Positions 51,195 to 60,892 of a stretch of DNA of 64,000 nucleotides are shown here, in pieces. A program made the position numbers and the translations under genes. Source of the stretch: Oligoflexales bacterium (GTDB lineage: Bacteria; Bdellovibrionota_B; Oligoflexia; Oligoflexales; JAPPIL01); NCBI GenBank assembly GCA_965215515.1, contig OZ244057.1, positions 1,952,001 through 2,016,000 of the forward strand, given 5' to 3'. Position 1 is the first letter of the stretch. The number at the start of each line of letters is the position of its first letter. The notes beneath the pieces are model-generated. The model saw only the letters and a list, made by a program, of their open reading frames with translations. It ran no database searches and was not told the DNA's origin.

Positions 51195-52229
51195 ATGCAA
51201 CACAAACACAACGGAGTAGCCACCACACGTTTCATCGCAGCAGAACAAACAGAGAAGGATGCCATAGCCGAGTCCGACAGACAACTCAGACCACAATCCT
51301 TCGCCGACTACCCTGGACAAACACGGGCCAAAAGTAACCTGACCACCTACGTCAAAGCAGCACGCCTGCGCGACGAAGTGATGGATCACGTCCTCCTACA
51401 CGGCCCGCCAGGCTTAGGCAAAACAACCCTCGGCCGTATCATCGCTAACGAATTAGGTATGCCCTTCTTCGCTACCAGCGCACCTGGCCTTGAAAAACAA
51501 GGAGATTTGGCAGGAATTTTGGCAAGCTTCGAACAACGCACAACGGTGTTCGTCGACGAAATCCACCGCCTACCAAAAACAGTAGAAGAAACACTTTACG
51601 CCGCGATGGAAGACTTCGCCCTCGACCTCGTCGTTGGACAAGGACAAGCGGCACGCCCCCTGAAAATGCCAATCGCAGCATTCACCCTAGTCGGGGCCAC
51701 AACACGAGTATCACTGCTGTCACGCCCACTGCTGAGCCGCTTCGGCATTCAAGAACGCCTTGAATTCTACACCGCCACAGAACTTGCACAAATCATCACC
51801 CGCGCCGCCCGCGTGCTCGCCATCCCCATCAACGCCTCTGGCTGCGCCGAAATCAGCTGCCGAGCACGAGGCACACCACGCATCGCTAACCGACTCCTAC
51901 GACGAGTATGGGACTTCGCAGTCGTCGCAGGCCACAAAGAAATCAACCGACAAATTACCCGCCATGCCCTGCAACAACTCGAAATCGACGGCGACGGACT
52001 CGACCGAGTCGATCGCGCCATCCTCCACACACTCCACGACCAGTACCAGGACGGCCCCGTCGGTATCGATACCCTGTCCGCCTCCCTCGGCGAAGAACGC
52101 AAAACTATCGAAGAAGTCTACGAACCATTCCTCGTTTACAACGGCTACCTTACCCGCTCACCCCGAGGACGAGTACTAACTACACGCGGCATCGCACACA
52201 TCACCAACCACACCCCGACAACGCTCTAG
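51195..52229 (+). CDS. ruvB: Holliday junction DNA helicase RuvB
   Basis: LRPQSF, GPPGLGKTT, DEIHR, GATTR, RGTPRIANRLL, YEPFL. Confidence 0.98.
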   Translation: MQHKHNGVATTRFIAAEQTEKDAIAESDRQLRPQSFADYPGQTRAKSNLTTYVKAARLRDEVMDHVLLHGPPGLGKTTLGRIIANELGMPFFATSAPGLEKQGDLAGILASFEQRTTVFVDEIHRLPKTVEETLYAAMEDFALDLVVGQGQAARPLKMPIAAFTLVGATTRVSLLSRPLLSRFGIQERLEFYTATELAQIITRAARVLAIPINASGCAEISCRARGTPRIANRLLRRVWDFAVVAGHKEINRQITRHALQQLEIDGDGLDRVDRAILHTLHDQYQDGPVGIDTLSASLGEERKTIEEVYEPFLVYNGYLTRSPRGRVLTTRGIAHITNHTPTTL

Positions 52230-53284
52230 TTCTGGACAGGAATGCCACTCTTGAAATAACCCTCTCTGTTAGCGTCGGTATCACCTTCGCCAGAGAAAAA
52301 CGCGGTGCGAGGGTCTAGCTCATCTTTTGCGTACTTACCGTGCGCCCACTTGCCTGACGAGTTTTCCAAAAATTCTGCCGCGTTTACCTTAAACTGTTTC
52401 TCTAACGCTGACGAAGCGGCGGTGTGCACCCGCTCAGCATCAAAGTAACGCACACCGCCAAAACTAGCGTCTGCACACGACTTGTTGAAGTCTTCCCCCG
52501 CCCCAATGTCGCAGGTGGCAAACAAAACTGCTGAACCGCTATCTTTCAGATGCGCTAAGGCCAAGTATATTTTGCTGGAATAATCATGATGGTAGAGACG
52601 CAAGCCGAGCAGATGCTCTTTGTCAGTCCCAGAGCCGTGCTCTACGAGATAACTGCGTTGCACAACATTCTTGCCCTCCCCCGCCTGCAAAAAGAAAACA
52701 CTCGCGATCTGTCGCAAGCCGTCTTGCTTATCCAGCTCAATGCGGGTTTGAGTTCTGAAGCCGTTTTCCTGCAAGTAAAGATTAACCATCTTGCCCGTAA
52801 CCGTATCAGCCTCACCATCGGTCATAGGAACTTCGCCCGTATCGCTATCCTTTTGCTCCTCCCACTCCACAAAACGCGTGCCATCCCACAACTCAGCGCT
52901 CTGTCGGTGAGAGCGGTGAAGAACCCGCACGTCAGTTTCGTCAACGATCTCAGCCCCATCTTCTCTTGCCTGCTGACGCATGTTGCAGTCGTAAAACAAC
53001 GCCTGGGCATAGCCGTAACCAGCCATGCCCAACGCTATCTCATTACCGCTCTCACTCTTCCCCAGCGCGTCGGCCATAGCAGCACCAGCCGTGTCACGGT
53101 GTTCCATCTTCGCAATGCAATCACCATCGTGCTGCAAAGTTAACGAGGTAGCCCAGTCCTTCGTAATGTAGGAGAAAGGTTGTGCCGCGAAAGCAGGCGG
53201 TACAGCTCCGCTCCCACCCTGCTTGTCACTACTGAAACCACAACCAACCACAAGCAAAGCTACCGAGAGCAAAATAATCATCAT
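52226..53284 (-). CDS. Hypothetical lipoprotein
   Basis: MMIILLSVALLVVGC lipobox; AAAGGTGG RBS. Confidence 0.7.
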   Translation of the reverse strand: MMIILLSVALLVVGCGFSSDKQGGSGAVPPAFAAQPFSYITKDWATSLTLQHDGDCIAKMEHRDTAGAAMADALGKSESGNEIALGMAGYGYAQALFYDCNMRQQAREDGAEIVDETDVRVLHRSHRQSAELWDGTRFVEWEEQKDSDTGEVPMTDGEADTVTGKMVNLYLQENGFRTQTRIELDKQDGLRQIASVFFLQAGEGKNVVQRSYLVEHGSGTDKEHLLGLRLYHHDYSSKIYLALAHLKDSGSAVLFATCDIGAGEDFNKSCADASFGGVRYFDAERVHTAASSALEKQFKVNAAEFLENSSGKWAHGKYAKDELDPRTAFFSGEGDTDANREGYFKSGIPVQN

Positions 53285-53358
53285 GCCACCTTTCTCAAAT
53301 TTTACGCCGAACCATACCACCATGCTACCACGTCGGTCACGTCGTTGCAAATACCACT

Positions 53359-53410
53359 TGTAGATGACCCCATAGAGGGCAAGGGAGGTGTTTTTTTAAG
53401 AGCATCTATA
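53359..53410. repeat. 52-bp element with inverted ends TGTAGATG...CATCTATA (MITE-like)
   Basis: Ends match 7/8 as an inverted repeat; both resemble the dispersed TGTAGATGCCC motif. Confidence 0.5.
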
Positions 53411-53512
53411 CGTCGCACCGCACAAAACGCTTGGCATGATCTTAGCGAGAATGTACATGGAGCTTCGCCAGGCTGGCTAGACCGTCCGTTTTGAAGGAAG
53501 ACGACCCCACAG

Positions 53513-54511
53513 ATGACTTGCGCAACAAAGCCCATGTCCCCCTCCTCCTCGGCAGAGGTGCTACGCTACCGAGCACAGGTGTTCGCTTTTCTCAGGCAAT
53601 ACTTCACTGCGCATGGTTTTCTTGAAATCGAGACCCCACTGCTCGTCACCTGCCCAGGCACCGAACCCTACCTGCGCTACTTCAGTAGCCACTGGCAAGA
53701 CGAGCGTGGACGGCGACGGCGCAAGTTCTTGCGTTCCAGTCCCGAACTGCACATGAAACAGGTACTGAGCCATGCGACACCGAAAATCTTTCAGCTAGGC
53801 ACGTGTTTTCGCAACGGTGGCGAACACAGCACATGGCATCACCCTGAATTCACCCTGCTCGAATGGTACGAAGCAGAGACAGAATTCGAGACTTTCATCA
53901 CTTTCACCACCGATCTGCTAACCGAACTGTTTCGACAACACGGACAACGCCCGCTCCCTGCCCTGCACAAATTCACCGTCTATGATGCTTTCGCCGAGTT
54001 CGCAGGCATCGTCTTGCACGACAACGATCCCCAACTAGGACATGAGGCTGCGGCAAAAGGTTGTGTCTCGGTACAGAAAAGCGACGATTTCCCTACCGCC
54101 TTTTTCAAGGTGTTGCTAGAATGTATCGAGCCACGGCTGCGCAAACTCGGCAACGTGCTACTTTACAACTACCCACCCTCACAGGCAGCGCTCGCGAAGG
54201 TGGTGGCAGGACGTGCCCAGCGTTTCGAAATTTATCTCGACGGCATAGAAATTTGCAACGCCTTCGCCGAATGCCTCGACAAGGAAGAAAATGCACGGCG
54301 TTTCGCGACCTACGCACGTCTCAGACACGCACACGGCCTGCCACCCGTACCGCGTGACACGTACTTCGAGGCGGCTTTGCAGCGAGGCATACCACCCGCC
54401 TGCGGCAACGCACTCGGGATCGATCGTGTTCTCGCCCTACTGCGCGGTGCACCTGACCTCGATGCAGTACTACCGTTTCGTACCCAATTTACTCTCAAGT
54501 CTGCGCAGTAA
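53513..54511 (+). CDS. epmA: EF-P beta-lysyltransferase (EpmA/GenX/PoxA)
   Basis: FLEIETP, LRSSPELHMK, FRN, HHPEFTLLEWY, YPPSQAALA, RFE, ALGIDR; LysRS catalytic domain only. Confidence 0.92.
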   Translation: MTCATKPMSPSSSAEVLRYRAQVFAFLRQYFTAHGFLEIETPLLVTCPGTEPYLRYFSSHWQDERGRRRRKFLRSSPELHMKQVLSHATPKIFQLGTCFRNGGEHSTWHHPEFTLLEWYEAETEFETFITFTTDLLTELFRQHGQRPLPALHKFTVYDAFAEFAGIVLHDNDPQLGHEAAAKGCVSVQKSDDFPTAFFKVLLECIEPRLRKLGNVLLYNYPPSQAALAKVVAGRAQRFEIYLDGIEICNAFAECLDKEENARRFATYARLRHAHGLPPVPRDTYFEAALQRGIPPACGNALGIDRVLALLRGAPDLDAVLPFRTQFTLKSAQ

Positions 54512-54558
54512 CACACCGACAACAGGTGTGAGTGAGTGCTACAAAAGGAGATGCTGGG

Positions 54559-55206
54559 ATGTACATTCTACCACAGTTGCTACTGGCAATGCTGTTGTTG
54601 TCGTGCTCAGCAAGCGAAAAAAAGCGTACCGACGATCCTCCGTCATCGTTGCCGCCACCGCCGCAGACCCCTACACCTAAGGCAGAAGACACCACCTTGC
54701 GCGACACAAACCGCACCTCTAAAAAATACATCACCTCTGCACCGACACCCACGCTAATCGTCGTAAATGGCGACGAGGAAGGTGCACAGAAAGGAAATGA
54801 AAAGCAAGAAGAACCACCGCGCACTGAGCAGGAAGCTCGCCCTATGCCACGACAGCAACAGGAGGTGGCAGAAACCACCGCGGAGAAAGAAGAGCCCCAA
54901 CCGCCAGTTCCTCCCGCACCAGATGTTCCCTTAACGGTCAAGGTGAGTTTTGTAAACAGTGATAATGTCTTGTATCCGCAGCTGGAATTTTCTCCGCAAC
55001 ACGTGTCTGAGATAAGTGACATCACCTGGCAGCATGCGGGAGAAGTTACCATGCAGTTAGAAGACGATGCCTTTGTTTTCAAGAACGAAGGAGTCATGAT
55101 ACCACCGCTGAGCTTTTGGTTAAAGTTGCGGTGGGGTGACAAAACATGCCACGAGCGTATCGAGGTTAGCGACATGACACACACGGTGGAGATAATATGT
55201 TCATGA
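54559..55206 (+). CDS. Hypothetical Pro/Glu-rich lipoprotein
   Basis: LLLAMLLLSC lipobox, low-complexity linker; AGGAG RBS. Confidence 0.7.
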   Translation: MYILPQLLLAMLLLSCSASEKKRTDDPPSSLPPPPQTPTPKAEDTTLRDTNRTSKKYITSAPTPTLIVVNGDEEGAQKGNEKQEEPPRTEQEARPMPRQQQEVAETTAEKEEPQPPVPPAPDVPLTVKVSFVNSDNVLYPQLEFSPQHVSEISDITWQHAGEVTMQLEDDAFVFKNEGVMIPPLSFWLKLRWGDKTCHERIEVSDMTHTVEIICS

Positions 55207-56081
55207 AAATACTGTTGCTTACTATCTCATTGTTTGCCTGCAAACTGACTTCCATGTCCTCGTCCGATTTACACGATCATTCGACAGCTGCTCAGGCAGA
55301 TGACCAGGCGGTGTTTTTGCATGTGTTGCCGCGTGGCATCGAAGTTACGGTGCCAGACACGTCGGTAACAGGTGCTCTGCCACAGGCTTTCTATCACCTA
55401 CGCAGTGCTGATCAAAAATTTGCGCGAGATGCAGTTACCGCACAACCGTTGCGGGCTGCGCCTGTTACTTTTGCGGAGCTGGTCTTGGCCTGGCAGAACC
55501 AGGCCTACACCTGGTTGTGTTTTTTGCAAGATATCGCTGGTAGCCGTGTGATCGAGCCGACGCGGGATAACAGATGTTACCGACAGGACGCACAACACTC
55601 CTACCTCCAGCAGTTTGCTGCGTGGTGCAGCAAAGACAATAAGTACCACGCCCCTTTTTTTCTCGACAGCGCTGCCCCATATTGCAAGGTGGGCAAAATC
55701 AGTGCTAGCAAAACAGTACGTATTCCACTGCGTTGTTTCACAGGCAATGCCAACCTGTGTTTTCCTCCCGCAAAACGCAGCATTAAGCGTGCGGGGCGCA
55801 ATCCACAACGTATCCCCGATCGGCGTTTCAGAGCCGACGAATACTATATCGCTAAATACCTACAAAAGAGCGGCAAAACTTTCCCCGCCCTGCTCGACGA
55901 CATCTACGCACAAGCCTCAGACTGTCGTGACGGAGCTGGGATGGAGGTGCATACCTTTGTGCGAAGACATCCATTTTACTGTAGTTGCCCGCGGCACAAA
56001 AACAAAAAAATAATTCTCAATGGACAGGAAAAAAAATGTGGTGCAACGGGCTACGCTTACTTTTTTCCTCCACTCCCCTAG
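55203..56081 (+). CDS. Hypothetical Cys-containing lipoprotein
   Basis: MKILLLTISLFAC lipobox; ATGA overlap with the upstream gene. Confidence 0.7.
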   Translation: MKILLLTISLFACKLTSMSSSDLHDHSTAAQADDQAVFLHVLPRGIEVTVPDTSVTGALPQAFYHLRSADQKFARDAVTAQPLRAAPVTFAELVLAWQNQAYTWLCFLQDIAGSRVIEPTRDNRCYRQDAQHSYLQQFAAWCSKDNKYHAPFFLDSAAPYCKVGKISASKTVRIPLRCFTGNANLCFPPAKRSIKRAGRNPQRIPDRRFRADEYYIAKYLQKSGKTFPALLDDIYAQASDCRDGAGMEVHTFVRRHPFYCSCPRHKNKKIILNGQEKKCGATGYAYFFPPLP

Positions 56082-56142
56082 TTTCCAACTTGAACACAGA
56101 CACGCGGCTGCTCCCCTTCTTTCCTAATGATGGCGACTAATA

Positions 56143-56159
56143 TGTAGATGCCCTCCTAG
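56143..56159 (+). repeat. Dispersed TGTAGATGCCC element, degenerate copy
   Basis: TGTAGATGCCCTCCTAG, 14/17 identical to the start of the 59063 copy. Confidence 0.5.
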
Positions 56160-56610
56160 TTAAGGTTTGCAATTTAGTGGTCACCTCTCGCAGTTCCTGC
56201 TGTGGTCGCTGTCCAGGACAATACCACCCCCTGCGGCGTAATCGCGCCGACAAGATGATGAACGGTAGCAAAACTCCGCACCCGTGCCGCACAACGGTGT
56301 TGGACATACACGCGGTAAAGGCTGAGCATCTTGCAATAATATCCACAGGCGTAGCCTATATTGCACCTCGCGGTCACGAAACCAGGCTTTAGTTGCTTGC
56401 TTAGCTTGAGTGAACTAGGAGAGGATATACTTATCGAGATGTTTTAATTTAACCCCCTCCCCAAAACCACATCGCTCGCCTCGTTGAATAACCTGCTTGT
56501 TAATAATTTAATGGTTATTTACAAATATTTATAAATTAATACTATAAAATATATAGAACATGTTGTATCATGTCCAACGATGAGATAGGACATGCTTCAC
56601 AGGGAATGTA

Positions 56611-57723
56611 ATGGCAAAGATAACTTTTTATCCGCTTGGCAACGCGGATTCGACTTTGATTGAGCTTAATAACGGCAAGACCATGCTTATCGATTATGCA
56701 CACTCAAAAAAATCAGAGGATTGCGATGATGAAAAAATAGTTTTAGATCGGGAAATAAGAAGGAGACTCAATCATTATAATCCCCATATTGATGTTGTAG
56801 CCTTTACTCATGCAGATGAGGATCACACGCGTGGTGCTGTGGATTTCTTTGCTCTTGAGCATGCAAATAAATATCGAAGCAAGGGTCGGGTGGGCATAGG
56901 TGAGTTGTGGGTACCGGCCGCGATGATCGTCGAGGAGGGGTTGAAGGGAGATAGTAGAGCGATCAGACAGGAGGCGAGATATAGGTTGAAAAAGGGACAT
57001 GGCGTTCGGGTGTTTTCCTGCCCTGGACTTTTAGATGACTGGCTTAGTCGAGAGGGTGTAGACATGGAATCGTCGCAGCGGTGTGTTGCCATCAGTGCTG
57101 GCAATGTTATTCCTAAATTTGACCTGTTAAATGATGGGCTTGAGGCTTTTGTCCATTCACCGTTTGCATCTCGCGATGGTAAAGGTTTGCAGAGCAGAAA
57201 TGATGGTTCACTCTTCTTGCATCTGACCTTTGCTAGCGATGGCAGGAAGACAAGGGTAATGATGGGGGCTGACGCAACATGGGATGTTCTCGAAGATATC
57301 ATCAGAATCACAAAATACTACGGGCATGAAGAGCGGTTGAAATGGGATATTTATCGGGTCTCACACCACTGTTCCTATCTTTCACTGTCACCTGATAAGG
57401 GCGAGGAGGTAACCATTCCCAGCGAGAGTATCGACTGGCTCTTTAAGCAAGGAAGCGTTGGCAGCTACATAATTTCTTCTAGTAGTCCAATTGCCGCCTC
57501 TGGAGAGGGCTCCAGCCAGCCACCGCATCGGCAAGCAGCAAATTACTACAGGCAAAAAGCACGCTTCCTAGATGGTGAATTCTTGGTGACTATGGAGTAT
57601 CCAGATGCATATCTACCAAGGCCTATGGTGTTCACCATCTCTGCTCACGGAATCACGCTTGAAAGCATAACAACCTCTGTTACAGATTCTATAGTTATCA
57701 ACGATTCTTGTAGGTTAGGATGA
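56611..57723 (+). CDS. Metallo-beta-lactamase-fold hydrolase (ComEC-like HxDxDH) ending in Gly
   Basis: ITFYPLGNADSTLI, LIDY, FTHADEDH, RNDGS, GAD, SHHCS, QPPHRQAANYY; C-terminus CRLG. Confidence 0.85.
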   Translation: MAKITFYPLGNADSTLIELNNGKTMLIDYAHSKKSEDCDDEKIVLDREIRRRLNHYNPHIDVVAFTHADEDHTRGAVDFFALEHANKYRSKGRVGIGELWVPAAMIVEEGLKGDSRAIRQEARYRLKKGHGVRVFSCPGLLDDWLSREGVDMESSQRCVAISAGNVIPKFDLLNDGLEAFVHSPFASRDGKGLQSRNDGSLFLHLTFASDGRKTRVMMGADATWDVLEDIIRITKYYGHEERLKWDIYRVSHHCSYLSLSPDKGEEVTIPSESIDWLFKQGSVGSYIISSSSPIAASGEGSSQPPHRQAANYYRQKARFLDGEFLVTMEYPDAYLPRPMVFTISAHGITLESITTSVTDSIVINDSCRLG

Positions 57724-58841
57724 AAAATACGAACCCTCCCAAAATTGGAATATGTCTCTCTGGTGGTGGCTCACGCGCGATGGCTTTCCATCTGGGTTGT
57801 TTAAGGACGTTGCACAAGCGCAGCATACTCAACAAGGTATCACTGATATCCACCGTATCAGGAGGATCAGTAATCGGTGCGATGTATGCCTACAGCAACG
57901 ATAGTTTCGAAGAATTTACCGCGAAGGTTAGCCAGCAGCTTGAATCTGGATTCCAACCAGAAGAGGATAATGGTATTTTTTTTACACCCAAAATGCTTTT
58001 TTCTTTGATTAGGGTTGTTTTTTTCTCGTCTGAAAATAAATCTGAAAAACGTAAAAAAGCTGCAAAAATTTTTGAAGATCGACTCTATCGAGCAGAAGAG
58101 TTGGCAGCAATTTTTGATGAAAAGCTTTACCAAGGAAAGAAGCTCTCAGCAGAGACTCGTAATGGGCTTGAAATAACAATTAATGCCTGCGAACTCAGTA
58201 CCAACACCGCGTTTCGCTTTAGCAACAAAATCATCAATAACTGGCTTCTAGGTGAGGTATCGACAGATTCAGTGAGCCTCGCTGAAGCAGTGGCTGCATC
58301 GGCTGCCTATCCAATACTTGTCTCAACGATGGACAAACACTTTGAGTTTAAAAAGAATGGGGGAAGGAAAAAGAAAAAAGTTTTCTTGACCGATGGTGGG
58401 GTTTATGAGAACCAAGGGATTACCGCTCTTTGGCCAGATCGCTCAGCTGAGTACAGTTATCCACATTGCCACTTTGACTACATAATCGCCTGTGACGCTG
58501 AGCCCAGCCGTTCACTGCCAAGACAACCTAACTTGACCCTGTTAGATAAGTTTAAGGAGTGTCTATCAACGTTAATGGGCAGAATAAGTTCGATGAATTT
58601 TAAGGTATTGCATGAATATAAAAACGCTAGAAAAATTAAGGGGTTTGTACTTGCACGGCTGAATACCGAAGATGAAAATATTTTATTCAAGGATGATAAA
58701 TTCGTGTCGTATGCACGTGTTGCCGACTATCCCACCGATTTCAAGGCAATGAAGAAAGAAGATATCGAGAGGTTAAGCAATCGTGGCGAGCAGATCACAG
58801 ATAGTTTTGTCAGGCAGTATGCAAGTGATCTAATAGTATAA
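57720..58841 (+). CDS. Patatin-like phospholipase
   Basis: LSGGGSRA (oxyanion loop), VSGGS (catalytic Ser), ASAAYP, TDGGVYEN (catalytic Asp); ATGA overlap with the MBL gene. Confidence 0.92.
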   Translation: MKNTNPPKIGICLSGGGSRAMAFHLGCLRTLHKRSILNKVSLISTVSGGSVIGAMYAYSNDSFEEFTAKVSQQLESGFQPEEDNGIFFTPKMLFSLIRVVFFSSENKSEKRKKAAKIFEDRLYRAEELAAIFDEKLYQGKKLSAETRNGLEITINACELSTNTAFRFSNKIINNWLLGEVSTDSVSLAEAVAASAAYPILVSTMDKHFEFKKNGGRKKKKVFLTDGGVYENQGITALWPDRSAEYSYPHCHFDYIIACDAEPSRSLPRQPNLTLLDKFKECLSTLMGRISSMNFKVLHEYKNARKIKGFVLARLNTEDENILFKDDKFVSYARVADYPTDFKAMKKEDIERLSNRGEQITDSFVRQYASDLIV

Positions 58842-59062
58842 TTTTTAACAAAAACGGAAGCCATCACGGCAACAATGACGACGCGATTGGGTTGCTCTTT
58901 TTTTACTTCATTTGCTCTCCTTACCAGCACTCACTTGGTCAGCATGTGTTAAGCTCCCATTAAGCGGCGGGAAAGTCCAGAGCTTATCCCTGGATCGCGG
59001 TATTTTAAAAATTCAGGCAGTTGTGGATAGCTGTGTTCGAAGAGATCTTTTGGCATGCGTAT

Positions 59063-59084
59063 TGTAGATGCCCCCGTAAAAAGC
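59063..59084 (+). repeat. Dispersed TGTAGATGCCCCCGTAAAAAGC element, copy at the cassette's right edge
   Basis: Near-identical to 30152-30172. Confidence 0.7.
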
Positions 59085-59146
59085 CTTCTCGTTTATCTAT
59101 TACCGCAACATGCACAAAGCTCTGCTGTGAACCTGATACACCGACC

Positions 59147-60340
59147 CTAGTCCAACACTTCCGCCACCACTCCCGCACCGACCGTGCGTCCGCCCTCGCG
59201 CAGGGCGAAACGTAGCTCCTTATCCATCGCAATCGGTGTAATGAGATCGACTTCCATGTCGATGTTGTCGCCAGGCATAACCATCTCAACGTTATCAGGC
59301 AACTTGATAATACCTGTCACGTCCGTGGTGCGAAAATAAAATTGCGGACGATACCCCTTGAAGAAGGGTGTGTGTCTGCCACCCTCCTCCTTGGTCAACA
59401 CATATACCTGCGCCTTGAATTTACGATGCGGCGTAATCGCACTAGGCTTGGACAGCACCTGTCCACGGAAAACTTCGTCCCGCTTCGTGCCGCGCAGTAG
59501 CACTCCCACGTTGTCACCCGCCCGCCCCTCGTCGAGCAGTTTGCGAAACATCTCTACCCCTGTGCAGGTAGTTTTGCTCGTTTCCTTGATCCCGACAATC
59601 TCAATCTCATCACCGACCTTGACAATACCCCTCTCAATCCTACCCGTGACTACCGTACCCCGTCCAGAAATAGAAAACACATCCTCGATAGGCATCAAGA
59701 AATCCAAATCAATAGGACGATCAGGAACAGGAATATAGTCGTCGCAAGCTTTGACCAACTCAAAAATAGCCTTGCAATCGTCACTATCGATGTTGTCGGA
59801 TTCGAGCGCTTTCAAAGCCGACCCCTTGACAATAGGGGTATCGTCGCCAGGGAACTTGTACTCACTGAGCAGTTCCCGCACCTCCATCTCCACTAAATCA
59901 AGCAACTCGGCATCGTCTACCATGTCAACCTTGTTGAGGAAGACTACAATCTTGGGCACACCTACCTGACGCGCCAACAAAATATGCTCCCGCGTCTGTG
60001 GCATCGGCCCGTCCGCCGCACTCACCACCAACACCGCACCATCCATCTGCGCGGCACCCGTAATCATGTTCTTCACATAGTCGGCATGACCAGGACAGTC
60101 AACGTGTGCATAATGGCGCTGCTCCGACTCATACTCGACATGCGAGGTCGAAATCGTAATTCCCCGCTCCTTCTCCTCAGGAGCCTTGTCAATCTCCTCG
60201 AACGCTAACGCCTGCCCACCGAATTTCTTCGACAATATCTTGGTAATCGCTGCCGTCAACGTCGTCTTGCCATGATCGACGTGACCGATCGTACCGACAT
60301 TAACATGCGGCTTGTTGCGCTCGAATTTCTCCTTCGCCAT
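59147..60340 (-). CDS. tuf: Elongation factor Tu
   Basis: [32 protein letters not shown]. Confidence 0.99.
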
Positions 60341-60443: not shown

Positions 60444-60515
60444 AGCCTGAGATGGGATTTGAACCCATGGCCTCATCCTTACCAAGGATGTGCTCTACCC
60501 CTGAGCTACACAGGC
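60444..60515 (-). tRNA. tRNA-Thr(GGT)
   Basis: Reverse complement GCCTGTG...CATCC-TTGGTAA-GGATG...TTCAAAT...CTCAGGCT. Confidence 0.93.
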
Positions 60516-60850
60516 CCAGCACACATACACACAAAGCGGAAGACGGGGATCGAACCCGCTACGCTCGCCTCTCCGCCGCTTCCTCGCTCCGCTTGGAAGA
60601 CCGATGCCCCCCAGCACACATACACACAAAGCGGAAGACGGGGATCGAACCCGCTGCGCTCGCCTCTCCGCCGCTTCCTCGCTCCGCTTGGAAGACCGAT
60701 GCCCCCCAGCACACATACACACAAAGCGGAAGACGGGGATCGAACCCGCTACCCTCGCCTCTCCGCCGCTTCCTCGCTCCGCTTGGAAGACCGATGCCCC
60801 CCAGCACACATACACACAAAGCGGAAGACGGGGATCGAACCCGCTACCCT
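60516..60850 (-). repeat. 95-bp tandem repeat derived from tRNA-Gly (three full units plus one partial)
   Basis: Units start at 60516, 60611, 60706 and 60801; they differ only at two positions (ACGC/GCGC/ACCC). Confidence 0.95.
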
Positions 60851-60892
60851 CAGCTTGGAAGGCTGATGCTCTACCAGATGAGCTACTTCCGC
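60820..60892 (-). tRNA. tRNA-Gly(TCC)
   Basis: Reverse complement GCGGAAG...TCAGC-CTTCCAA-GCTGA...TTCGATC...CTTCCGCT. Confidence 0.95.

Follow-up and report, generated by a model that had tools for sequence, protein, structure and literature searches.

The DNA analyzed in this work (hereafter, the window) is a stretch of 64,000 nucleotides from the genome of an Oligoflexales bacterium (assembly GCA_965215515.1, contig OZ244057.1, positions 1,952,001 to 2,016,000 of the forward strand); this genome (G000) is a single contig of 2.18 Mb, and it was compared with two congeners, G001 and G002. The element under study is a cassette of two genes located on the plus strand, the first of which (56611..57723) codes for a metallo-beta-lactamase-fold (MBL) protein of 370 amino acids and the second (57720..58841) for a patatin of 373 amino acids. 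As stated in the preliminary description of this DNA, the two genes overlap in the four bases ATGA (57720..57723, plus strand), where the stop codon of the MBL gene and the start codon of the patatin gene are joined in the letters GGATGA, and thus nothing lies between them. Judging from the sequences, this pair appears to represent a new, ligase-less form of the known 6A-MBL defense system.

Organization and Composition of the Cassette

The cassette is more AT-rich than its flanks, as had been noticed previously, with a G+C content of 0.35-0.50 across positions 56400-59000 vs. ~0.50-0.60 on either side (0.46 for the MBL gene and 0.42 for the patatin gene, the value of the whole window being 0.535). 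It is preceded by a non-coding region of ~530 bases (56082..56610, plus strand), for which the preliminary description had claimed an AT-rich composition; this holds for its 3' half only (G+C 0.35 in the block 56400-56799). The promoter scan marked a promoter-like site at 56518-56545 (plus strand) in this upstream region; promoter and terminator scans of the cassette region gave no excess over shuffled sequence (four promoter matches vs. 5.9 expected from the shuffles), and the sole Rfam match in the cassette and the region preceding it was isrG, with an E value of 0.16, i.e., at chance level.

The junction between the two genes is not an assembly artifact of one record, since a contig of 2850 bases from a public sequencing run, which may stem from the same study as the source record, spans positions 56318-59167 with zero differences. 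Three runs from other studies (X5-X7) yielded short, identical, low-depth fragments, with no diverged copies and none bridging the junction. The two genes are not chance open reading frames (ORFs) either, given that each of them has thousands of homologues (3136 for the MBL and 2244 for the patatin).

The MBL and Patatin Proteins

The MBL protein matches the model NF058524 ("anti-phage 6A-MBL system MBL-fold protein") over model positions 1-346 of 346 with 358.1 bits, the curated cut-off being 220 bits, and the match was confirmed on the genome. This finding bears out the view, in the preliminary description, that the protein resembles the MBL family replacing the cyclase in operons of the Cap2/Cap3 type. 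A Pfam scan gave MBL-domain matches below threshold only; the PADLOC models LmuA, RTasMBL, and Avs1a match the N-terminal part of the protein, which is also the part involved in the one weak match obtained against PHROGs, to a portion of a family of phage tail proteins. In the metal-binding motif H67-A-D69-E-D71-H72 (HxDxDH; 56809..56826, plus strand), H67, D69, D71, and H72 are invariant in 100 aligned family members, and the residues that are invariant in this alignment (H67, D69, D71, H72, D221, H252, and H253) are all present in the window protein; H182 is conserved in at least 90% of the aligned family. The AlphaFold model, built with 100 relatives, has a mean pLDDT (predicted local distance difference test) of 88.5, and among the PDB structures the beta-lactamase-like ComEC domain comes closest (9ic4, E value 5.5e-14), followed by the phosphorylcholine esterase Pce. 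In a HMMER alignment, the ComEC domain exhibits the same HxDxDH pattern. The MBL protein is thus predicted to be, probably, a ComEC-like metal-dependent phosphodiesterase or nuclease.

The patatin matches PF01734 with 68 bits vs. a cut-off of 27.7. An alignment of 95 relatives shows no variation at S14-G17, R19, S47-G49, and D225-G227, all of which the window protein has; these residues belong to the segment S14-G-G-G-S-R19, to TVSGG with S47, which is found throughout the patatin subfamily, and to DGG with D225, which we take to be the GGGxR oxyanion motif, the GxSxG-like motif of the nucleophile serine, and the motif of the catalytic aspartate, respectively. Both proteins thus keep their catalytic motifs, as the preliminary description had maintained. 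The patatin model (pLDDT 90.4) finds its best PDB matches in plant patatin, CapE, PlpD, and AbCapV, all with E values of ~1e-11 to 1e-10, and the PADLOC phospholipase effector model matches the protein weakly (E value 0.0057). The prediction of a complex between the MBL and the patatin scored 0.00 vs. a mark of 0.32, a result that counts neither for nor against binding. Four relatives of the patatin (P0132, P0136, P0137, and P0144) are cut at ~210-260 residues and have unrelated ends, P0144 lacking also the GGGxR and DGG motifs. Viral contigs yielded one truncated match, which is uninformative.

The 6A-MBL System and the Neighborhoods of Related Genes

An operon type 6a, usually consisting of two genes, one for a triple-module protein with an E2-like part, an E1-like part, and a JAB part and one for a specialized metallo-beta-lactamase, is described by Iyer, Burroughs and Aravind (2006; PMC1779556), and patatin goes unmentioned in that paper. 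In more recent texts, 6A-MBL is named among the defense systems tested in Pseudomonas aeruginosa (10.1101/2025.09.30.679545 and PMC13276650), where its anti-phage activity is credited to van den Berg et al. 2024, and a preprint (PMC11601596) places together, as "Type II CBASS/Pycsar/MBL", those pathways whose signaling enzyme is joined to "unknown targets" through the action of an E2-E1 fusion protein. The partner model of NF058524 is NF058523 ("6A-MBL_cap2_3", 665 positions). A patatin is not part of the NCBIfam definition of the system, and our search of the literature found no published two-gene system made up of an MBL and a patatin.

The organization of related loci was analyzed in a sample comprising 18 metagenome loci, 80 loci from species-representative genomes, and the congener G002 (96 further relatives from the genome collection were left out), whose ORFs were scored with custom hidden Markov models (HMMs) for the MBL, the fusion protein, and the patatin. 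The removal of four duplicates gave 95 unique loci, including that of the window, 72 of which are flanked by 1.3 kb or more on each side. In a Pfam check, Prok-E2_A, ThiF, and Prok-JAB were all found in three of three fusion proteins, and patatin in nine of nine third genes.

In almost all of these loci (69 of 72), the gene coding for the E2-E1-JAB fusion protein lies directly after the MBL gene; 39 of these 69 also harbor a patatin gene, usually as the third gene, and 30 have the fusion gene only. A patatin without a fusion gene is found in two loci, those of the window and of G002, and one locus (L075) has the MBL gene alone. In the terms used by the preliminary description, the MBL is thus followed by E2-E1-JAB in 69/72 neighborhoods and directly by patatin in 2/72, and homologues of the window genes do lie near ubiquitin-like genes. 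When all 44 loci harboring both a fusion gene and a patatin gene are considered, the patatin gene is downstream on the same strand in 30 of them, often overlapping the fusion gene by four bases, and downstream on the opposite strand in four; it is upstream on the same strand in five and upstream on the opposite strand, ~3 kb off, in two. In the remaining three loci, patatin and ligase are fused in one protein of 1032-1185 amino acids that matches both the E2-E1-JAB model and that of the patatin, a fusion linking the patatin to the pathway of the MBL. These three fusion genes (L076, 8085-11642; L077, 1981-5076; L081, 8136-11633) are found in Acidobacteriota as the gene after the MBL, and the MBL tails at these loci end in RVGFGRHD or RVGFGRYD.

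Some other features of these neighborhoods deserve mention. The MBL standing alone at L075 (6941-8131, from a metagenome-assembled genome of Gammaproteobacteria) is a family member scoring 453 bits with the custom HMM and lacks an R-x-G tail; no fusion gene or patatin gene lies within 5.7 kb downstream, and a gene coding for a helix-turn-helix (HTH) domain plus an M78 peptidase lies upstream. A Pfam scan of 71 ORFs flanking L075 and the fusion loci devoid of patatin revealed M78 peptidases (some with HTH), WYL and LexA/S24 proteins, and various defense-type genes. Among the loci without patatin, an M78 peptidase (IrrE-like) is encoded just upstream of the locus at, for example, L040, L064, L083, L089, L097, L102, and L113, a WYL protein upstream at L067, L069, L070, L080, and L091, and an S24/LexA protein at L042 and L084. 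Genes of the M78, WYL, and LexA-like types resemble the regulators found beside operons of CBASS (cyclic oligonucleotide-based antiphage signaling system).

The MBL Clade of the Window

The organization of the window recurs in G002, an Oligoflexales genome in which an MBL gene of 370 codons for amino acids is directly followed by a patatin gene, the junction reading AGATGA; the identity between the two genomes is 71% for the MBL and 65.5% for the patatin. In the maximum likelihood (ML) tree of 105 MBL sequences, those of the window, of G002, and of metagenome sequences P0002-P0009 form one clade (Shimodaira-Hasegawa-like approximate likelihood ratio test, SH-aLRT, 99), whose sister is formed by P0010 and P0011. 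The group branching off after these includes L038, a locus from Bdellovibrionales in which the genes for the MBL, the fusion protein, and the patatin follow one another, and further canonical loci lie outside. The clade of the window is, therefore, nested among three-gene systems, i.e., it is derived. This accords with the possibility, raised in the preliminary description, that the pair is a deletion derivative, to which it can now be added that the derivative is recurrent, occurring in a second species with the same ATGA junction, and that it is under purifying selection; the two-gene layout is neither confined to the window nor subject to relaxed selection (dN/dS, the ratio of nonsynonymous to synonymous substitution rates, ~0.1-0.2).

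The ligase is missing from the locus and from the rest of the genome as well, the latter as judged by four models: NF058523 gave no match in G000, and PF14457 (E2), PF14464 (JAB), and PF00899 (ThiF) gave none in either G000 or G002. The absence of Cap2 and Cap3 genes noticed in the preliminary description thus extends from the locus to the whole genome. Of 14 control genomes, PF00899 was found in 12, PF14464 in eight, and PF14457 in none, and the null result with PF14457 is therefore weak evidence. Given the lack of PF00899 in G000 and G002, the genus would seem to have neither the molybdopterin nor the thiamine sulfur-carrier pathway. No CD-NTase (cyclase) gene is present among the ORFs of the cassette, which are those of the MBL and the patatin only, no genome-wide search for a cyclase having been made. 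An MBL above the NF058524 cut-off was found in three of the 131 genomes of the phylum to which the window belongs.

As for the other members of the clade, in seven metagenome lineages the MBL and the patatin have matches on contigs of equal size (7089, 138746, 5963, 2558385, 46637, 87002, and 2849281 bases), and the identities of the two proteins to those of the window drop in parallel along these lineages: the two genes are inherited together. Among the best 120 of 123 relatives retrieved with the L038 fusion protein, none lies on contigs of those seven sizes; the same search did find contigs of the sister lineages (23181, 48775, 7321, 7141, and 99408 bases). This is suggestive only of the absence of a ligase from the contigs of the other clade members.

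The C-Terminal Tail of the MBL

The last residues of the MBL (351-370; 57661..57720, plus strand) are predicted to form a flexible tail, model confidence being low at residues 356-370 (pLDDT <50 at 356-361 and 366-370). In the window, the tail ends in CRLG (...SCRLG), where the family alignment has PRAG (consensus end APRAG, with R368 and G370 at least 90% conserved). The motif [RK]-x-G occurs within the last 14 residues in 85 of the 95 family loci; the ten loci without it comprise five genes cut by contig ends, L043, where the motif lies further upstream, L071, which is a read-through ORF, L075, L078, and G002.

The terminal glycine of the window protein had been given weight in the preliminary description, a weight that the relatives do not sustain. 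The last residue in the 13 sequences of the clade is R in ten cases and G, T, and S in one case each, so that the window sequence alone ends in glycine and 12 of the 13 do not; the RLG of the window fits R-x-G, and its last codon (GGA) differs by one base from that of G002 (AGA). Since the genome has no E1, the terminal glycine of the window is best read as incidental. The PRAG tail is decayed in this clade. The tail is still fairly conserved within the clade, approximately as D-x-S-C-R-[LIVM]-R, which hints at a new constraint.

Selection and Mobility

The comparison of G000 with G002 gave a dN/dS of 0.18-0.21 for the MBL gene (dS ~0.9-1.0) and of 0.12-0.14 for the patatin gene (dS 1.65-1.9), values that are rough because dS is near saturation; the dS of tuf between the same genomes is 0.81. 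Both genes are clearly constrained, i.e., under purifying selection.

The cassette does not occupy the same position in the two genomes. None of nine proteins encoded in the window on the flanks of the cassette matches the 20 kb around the cassette of G002, and the upstream regions of the two cassettes exhibit patchy AT-rich similarity only. The cassette of G002 is also low in G+C, with an AT-rich stretch upstream (G+C 0.34). The three genomes differ from one another in the order of the genes surrounding tuf, tuf and an epmA-like gene being far apart in G001 and G002, and no clean empty site is definable in the congeners. Because of its low G+C content and its non-syntenic positions, the pair behaves as a self-contained accessory cassette, which fits a mobile one.

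Surroundings of the Cassette

Three ORFs of 374, 224, and 294 amino acids lie upstream of the cassette (52226-56081); their N-termini are lipobox-like, as read from the translations, and they belong to no Pfam family. Downstream, a spacer (58842..59146) separates the cassette from tuf (59147..60340, minus strand). The placement of the cassette between orphan lipoprotein-like genes and tuf, reported previously, is therefore correct. The homology revealed by blastn with the tuf regions of G001 and G002 starts exactly at 59147, the end of tuf, so that the spacer marks where, on the right, the region not common to the congeners comes to its limit; the three lipobox-like ORFs fall in the stretch that is absent from the tuf regions of the congeners.

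A direct repeat of 16 bases (56143-56158 and 59063-59078) was considered as a possible target-site duplication and rejected. The motif of 16-17 bases TGTAGATGCCCCCGTA and its variants occur in 53 copies in the 2.18 Mb of G000 (vs. one for the reversed control), for which reason the repeat is not regarded as a scar left by the insertion of this particular cassette. Besides the two flanking copies, there is a partial one in inverted orientation at 56413-56434.

Upstream of tuf there is a cluster of tRNA genes (Thr, Tyr, Gly, and Thr). Just upstream of tuf, between tRNA-Thr(GGT) and tRNA-Gly(TCC), a unit of 95 bases is present in 3.5 tandem copies with 98% identity (60515-60851); the unit includes a stretch resembling a tRNA T-arm, and repeated blastn matches from the tuf region of G002 fall there.

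Discussion

The scenario that we favor for the origin of the pair is that a three-gene 6A-MBL system, consisting of the MBL, the E2-E1-JAB fusion, and the patatin, lost its middle gene in an ancestor common to the genome of the window and to at least one other Oligoflexales species. The deletion left the stop codon of the MBL overlapping the start codon of the patatin, and the remaining pair has been kept by selection, most likely as a phage-defense module that does without conjugation. According to this idea, the cytoplasmic ComEC-like MBL would be the upstream component, recognizing infection or cutting a phosphodiester substrate, and the patatin would be the effector damaging the membrane. 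On the whole, we consider it rather probable that the pair is a maintained, ligase-less derivative of 6A-MBL, most likely still acting in phage defense free of conjugation.

A number of observations weigh against this reading. Only in two genomes, both of one genus, does the DNA itself show an MBL gene adjacent to a patatin gene with no fusion gene, and the pairing in the other clade members rests on equal contig sizes. The search with the L038 fusion protein missed the contig of 156224 bases that carries P0011, whose MBL tail is canonical-like, so that the sensitivity of the search may be imperfect. Four of the 14 patatins with at least 53% identity are truncated, one of which (P0144) lacks DGG. 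The cassette of the window is devoid of the M78/HTH, WYL, or LexA-type regulators of canonical loci, and in both genomes it lies among housekeeping and orphan genes, with no defense island. Lastly, patatin is missing from 30 of the 69 canonical loci, and the MBL may thus work without it, alone or with other partners; to this the roughness of the dN/dS values must be added.

The last of these points about the MBL leads to a first alternative, according to which the two genes would be uncoupled, the MBL being a stand-alone nuclease-type enzyme of defense or housekeeping and the patatin an independent lipase left adjacent after the deletion. The loci without patatin, the MBL of L075, which has neither partner, and the related MBL domains found in other defense systems (the Avs1a, LmuA, and RTasMBL models) are all in agreement with this idea. 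However, it would not account for the parallel fall in identity of two proteins encoded on the same contigs, for an overlap of four bases kept in two species, or for the three loci where a single protein unites the patatin with the ligase acting on the MBL; hence, we regard it as unlikely.

According to a second alternative, the loss of the ligase would have ended the function of the system and both genes would be heading to pseudogenes. The loss of the conserved PRAG tail in the clade points in this direction, as do the lack of defense neighbors or regulators at the cassette and the truncated patatins, which could reflect decay in some lineages (that of P0008) or indel and frameshift errors in long-read assemblies. 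A decaying remnant would hardly be expected, however, to keep two full-length genes with all the invariant catalytic residues, a dN/dS of 0.12-0.21 after diverging to a dS of 0.9 or more, and the same ATGA junction in two species with non-syntenic flanks; moreover, the clade MBLs that are 68-90% identical to that of the window all have HxDxDH and HHCSY. We therefore deem the decay of the pair improbable, somewhat more so than the uncoupling of the two genes. Least probable of all is a role outside defense in Bdellovibrionota-related bacteria, such as lipid and nucleic acid turnover in a predatory or host-dependent life, which would suit the lineage (Oligoflexales), the housekeeping surroundings of both cassettes, and small genomes without any ThiF-type E1, and against which stand the lack of an evident signal peptide at either N-terminus, as read from the sequences, so that export to prey is not indicated, the tie that the family otherwise has to E2-E1-JAB ligases, the defense-type regulators and defense genes that make up many neighbors of the 30 patatin-less loci, and the low G+C content and non-syntenic positions that fit a mobile accessory cassette.

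These results bear on two questions about the 6A-MBL system, namely what its MBL enzyme does and why it needs conjugation. That 39 of the 69 canonical loci harbor a patatin suggests that the system commonly acts through damage to the membrane. In addition, the clade of the window offers a natural experiment: ligase, peptidase, and glycine tail are gone, but MBL and patatin remain under purifying selection, which suggests that the pair can work alone. Going further, we can speculate, as a tentative idea for which we would claim less than an even chance, that the patatin-bearing 6A-MBL systems work essentially through the link between MBL and patatin, ubiquitin-like conjugation being a layer of regulation that can be dispensed with; the MBL of this clade would be free of C-terminal priming, and either the remodeled tail D-x-S-C-R-[LIVM]-R or a product of the hydrolase would switch on the phospholipase directly. 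If this were true, the pair would be a natural "type I" MBL defense system and a two-protein model for what the MBL senses and makes. A system of two genes would also be easier to reconstitute than one of three, and it could help to distinguish between signaling from the MBL to the lipase and binding of the two proteins.

Comparison with Known Systems

The known protein closest to the MBL, both by structure (template modeling score, TM, 0.69, target-normalized) and by sequence profile, is the ComEC domain 9ic4, with which it has the HxDxDH motif in common. The two differ in that their identity is 16% and that the window protein has ~100 extra C-terminal residues plus the tail; furthermore, the MBL is soluble and stands alone, whereas the ComEC domain belongs to a membrane channel.

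As for 6A-MBL, the window MBL is a full-length member of the family, with the invariant metal-binding residues and a flexible C-terminal tail, and at the canonical loci harboring a patatin, the one encoded after the ligase gene is of the same subfamily as that of the window. In contrast with those loci, the E2-E1-JAB protein that defines the system is missing from both the locus and the genome of the window, the PRAG tail is decayed in the clade, and the stop codon of the MBL overlaps the start codon of the patatin directly.

A further comparison can be drawn with CBASS. Type I CBASS consists of a CD-NTase and an effector such as the patatin CapV, to which type II adds Cap2 (E2-E1) and Cap3 (JAB). 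Several differences separate the window pair from these systems: its upstream enzyme is an MBL with a hydrolase fold and not a nucleotide cyclase, with no CD-NTase at the locus; unlike type II systems, its genome has no Cap2 or Cap3 genes; and its patatin is as close to plant patatin and PlpD as to CapV and CapE. At the level of the fold, the patatin model does match CapE and AbCapV. Type II CBASS and 6A-MBL have a common logic, in that an E2-E1 protein carries out conjugation at the C-terminus of an enzyme and a JAB peptidase does the trimming, patatin being a frequent partner. By analogy, type I and type II CBASS would be related in the same way as the window pair and 6A-MBL.

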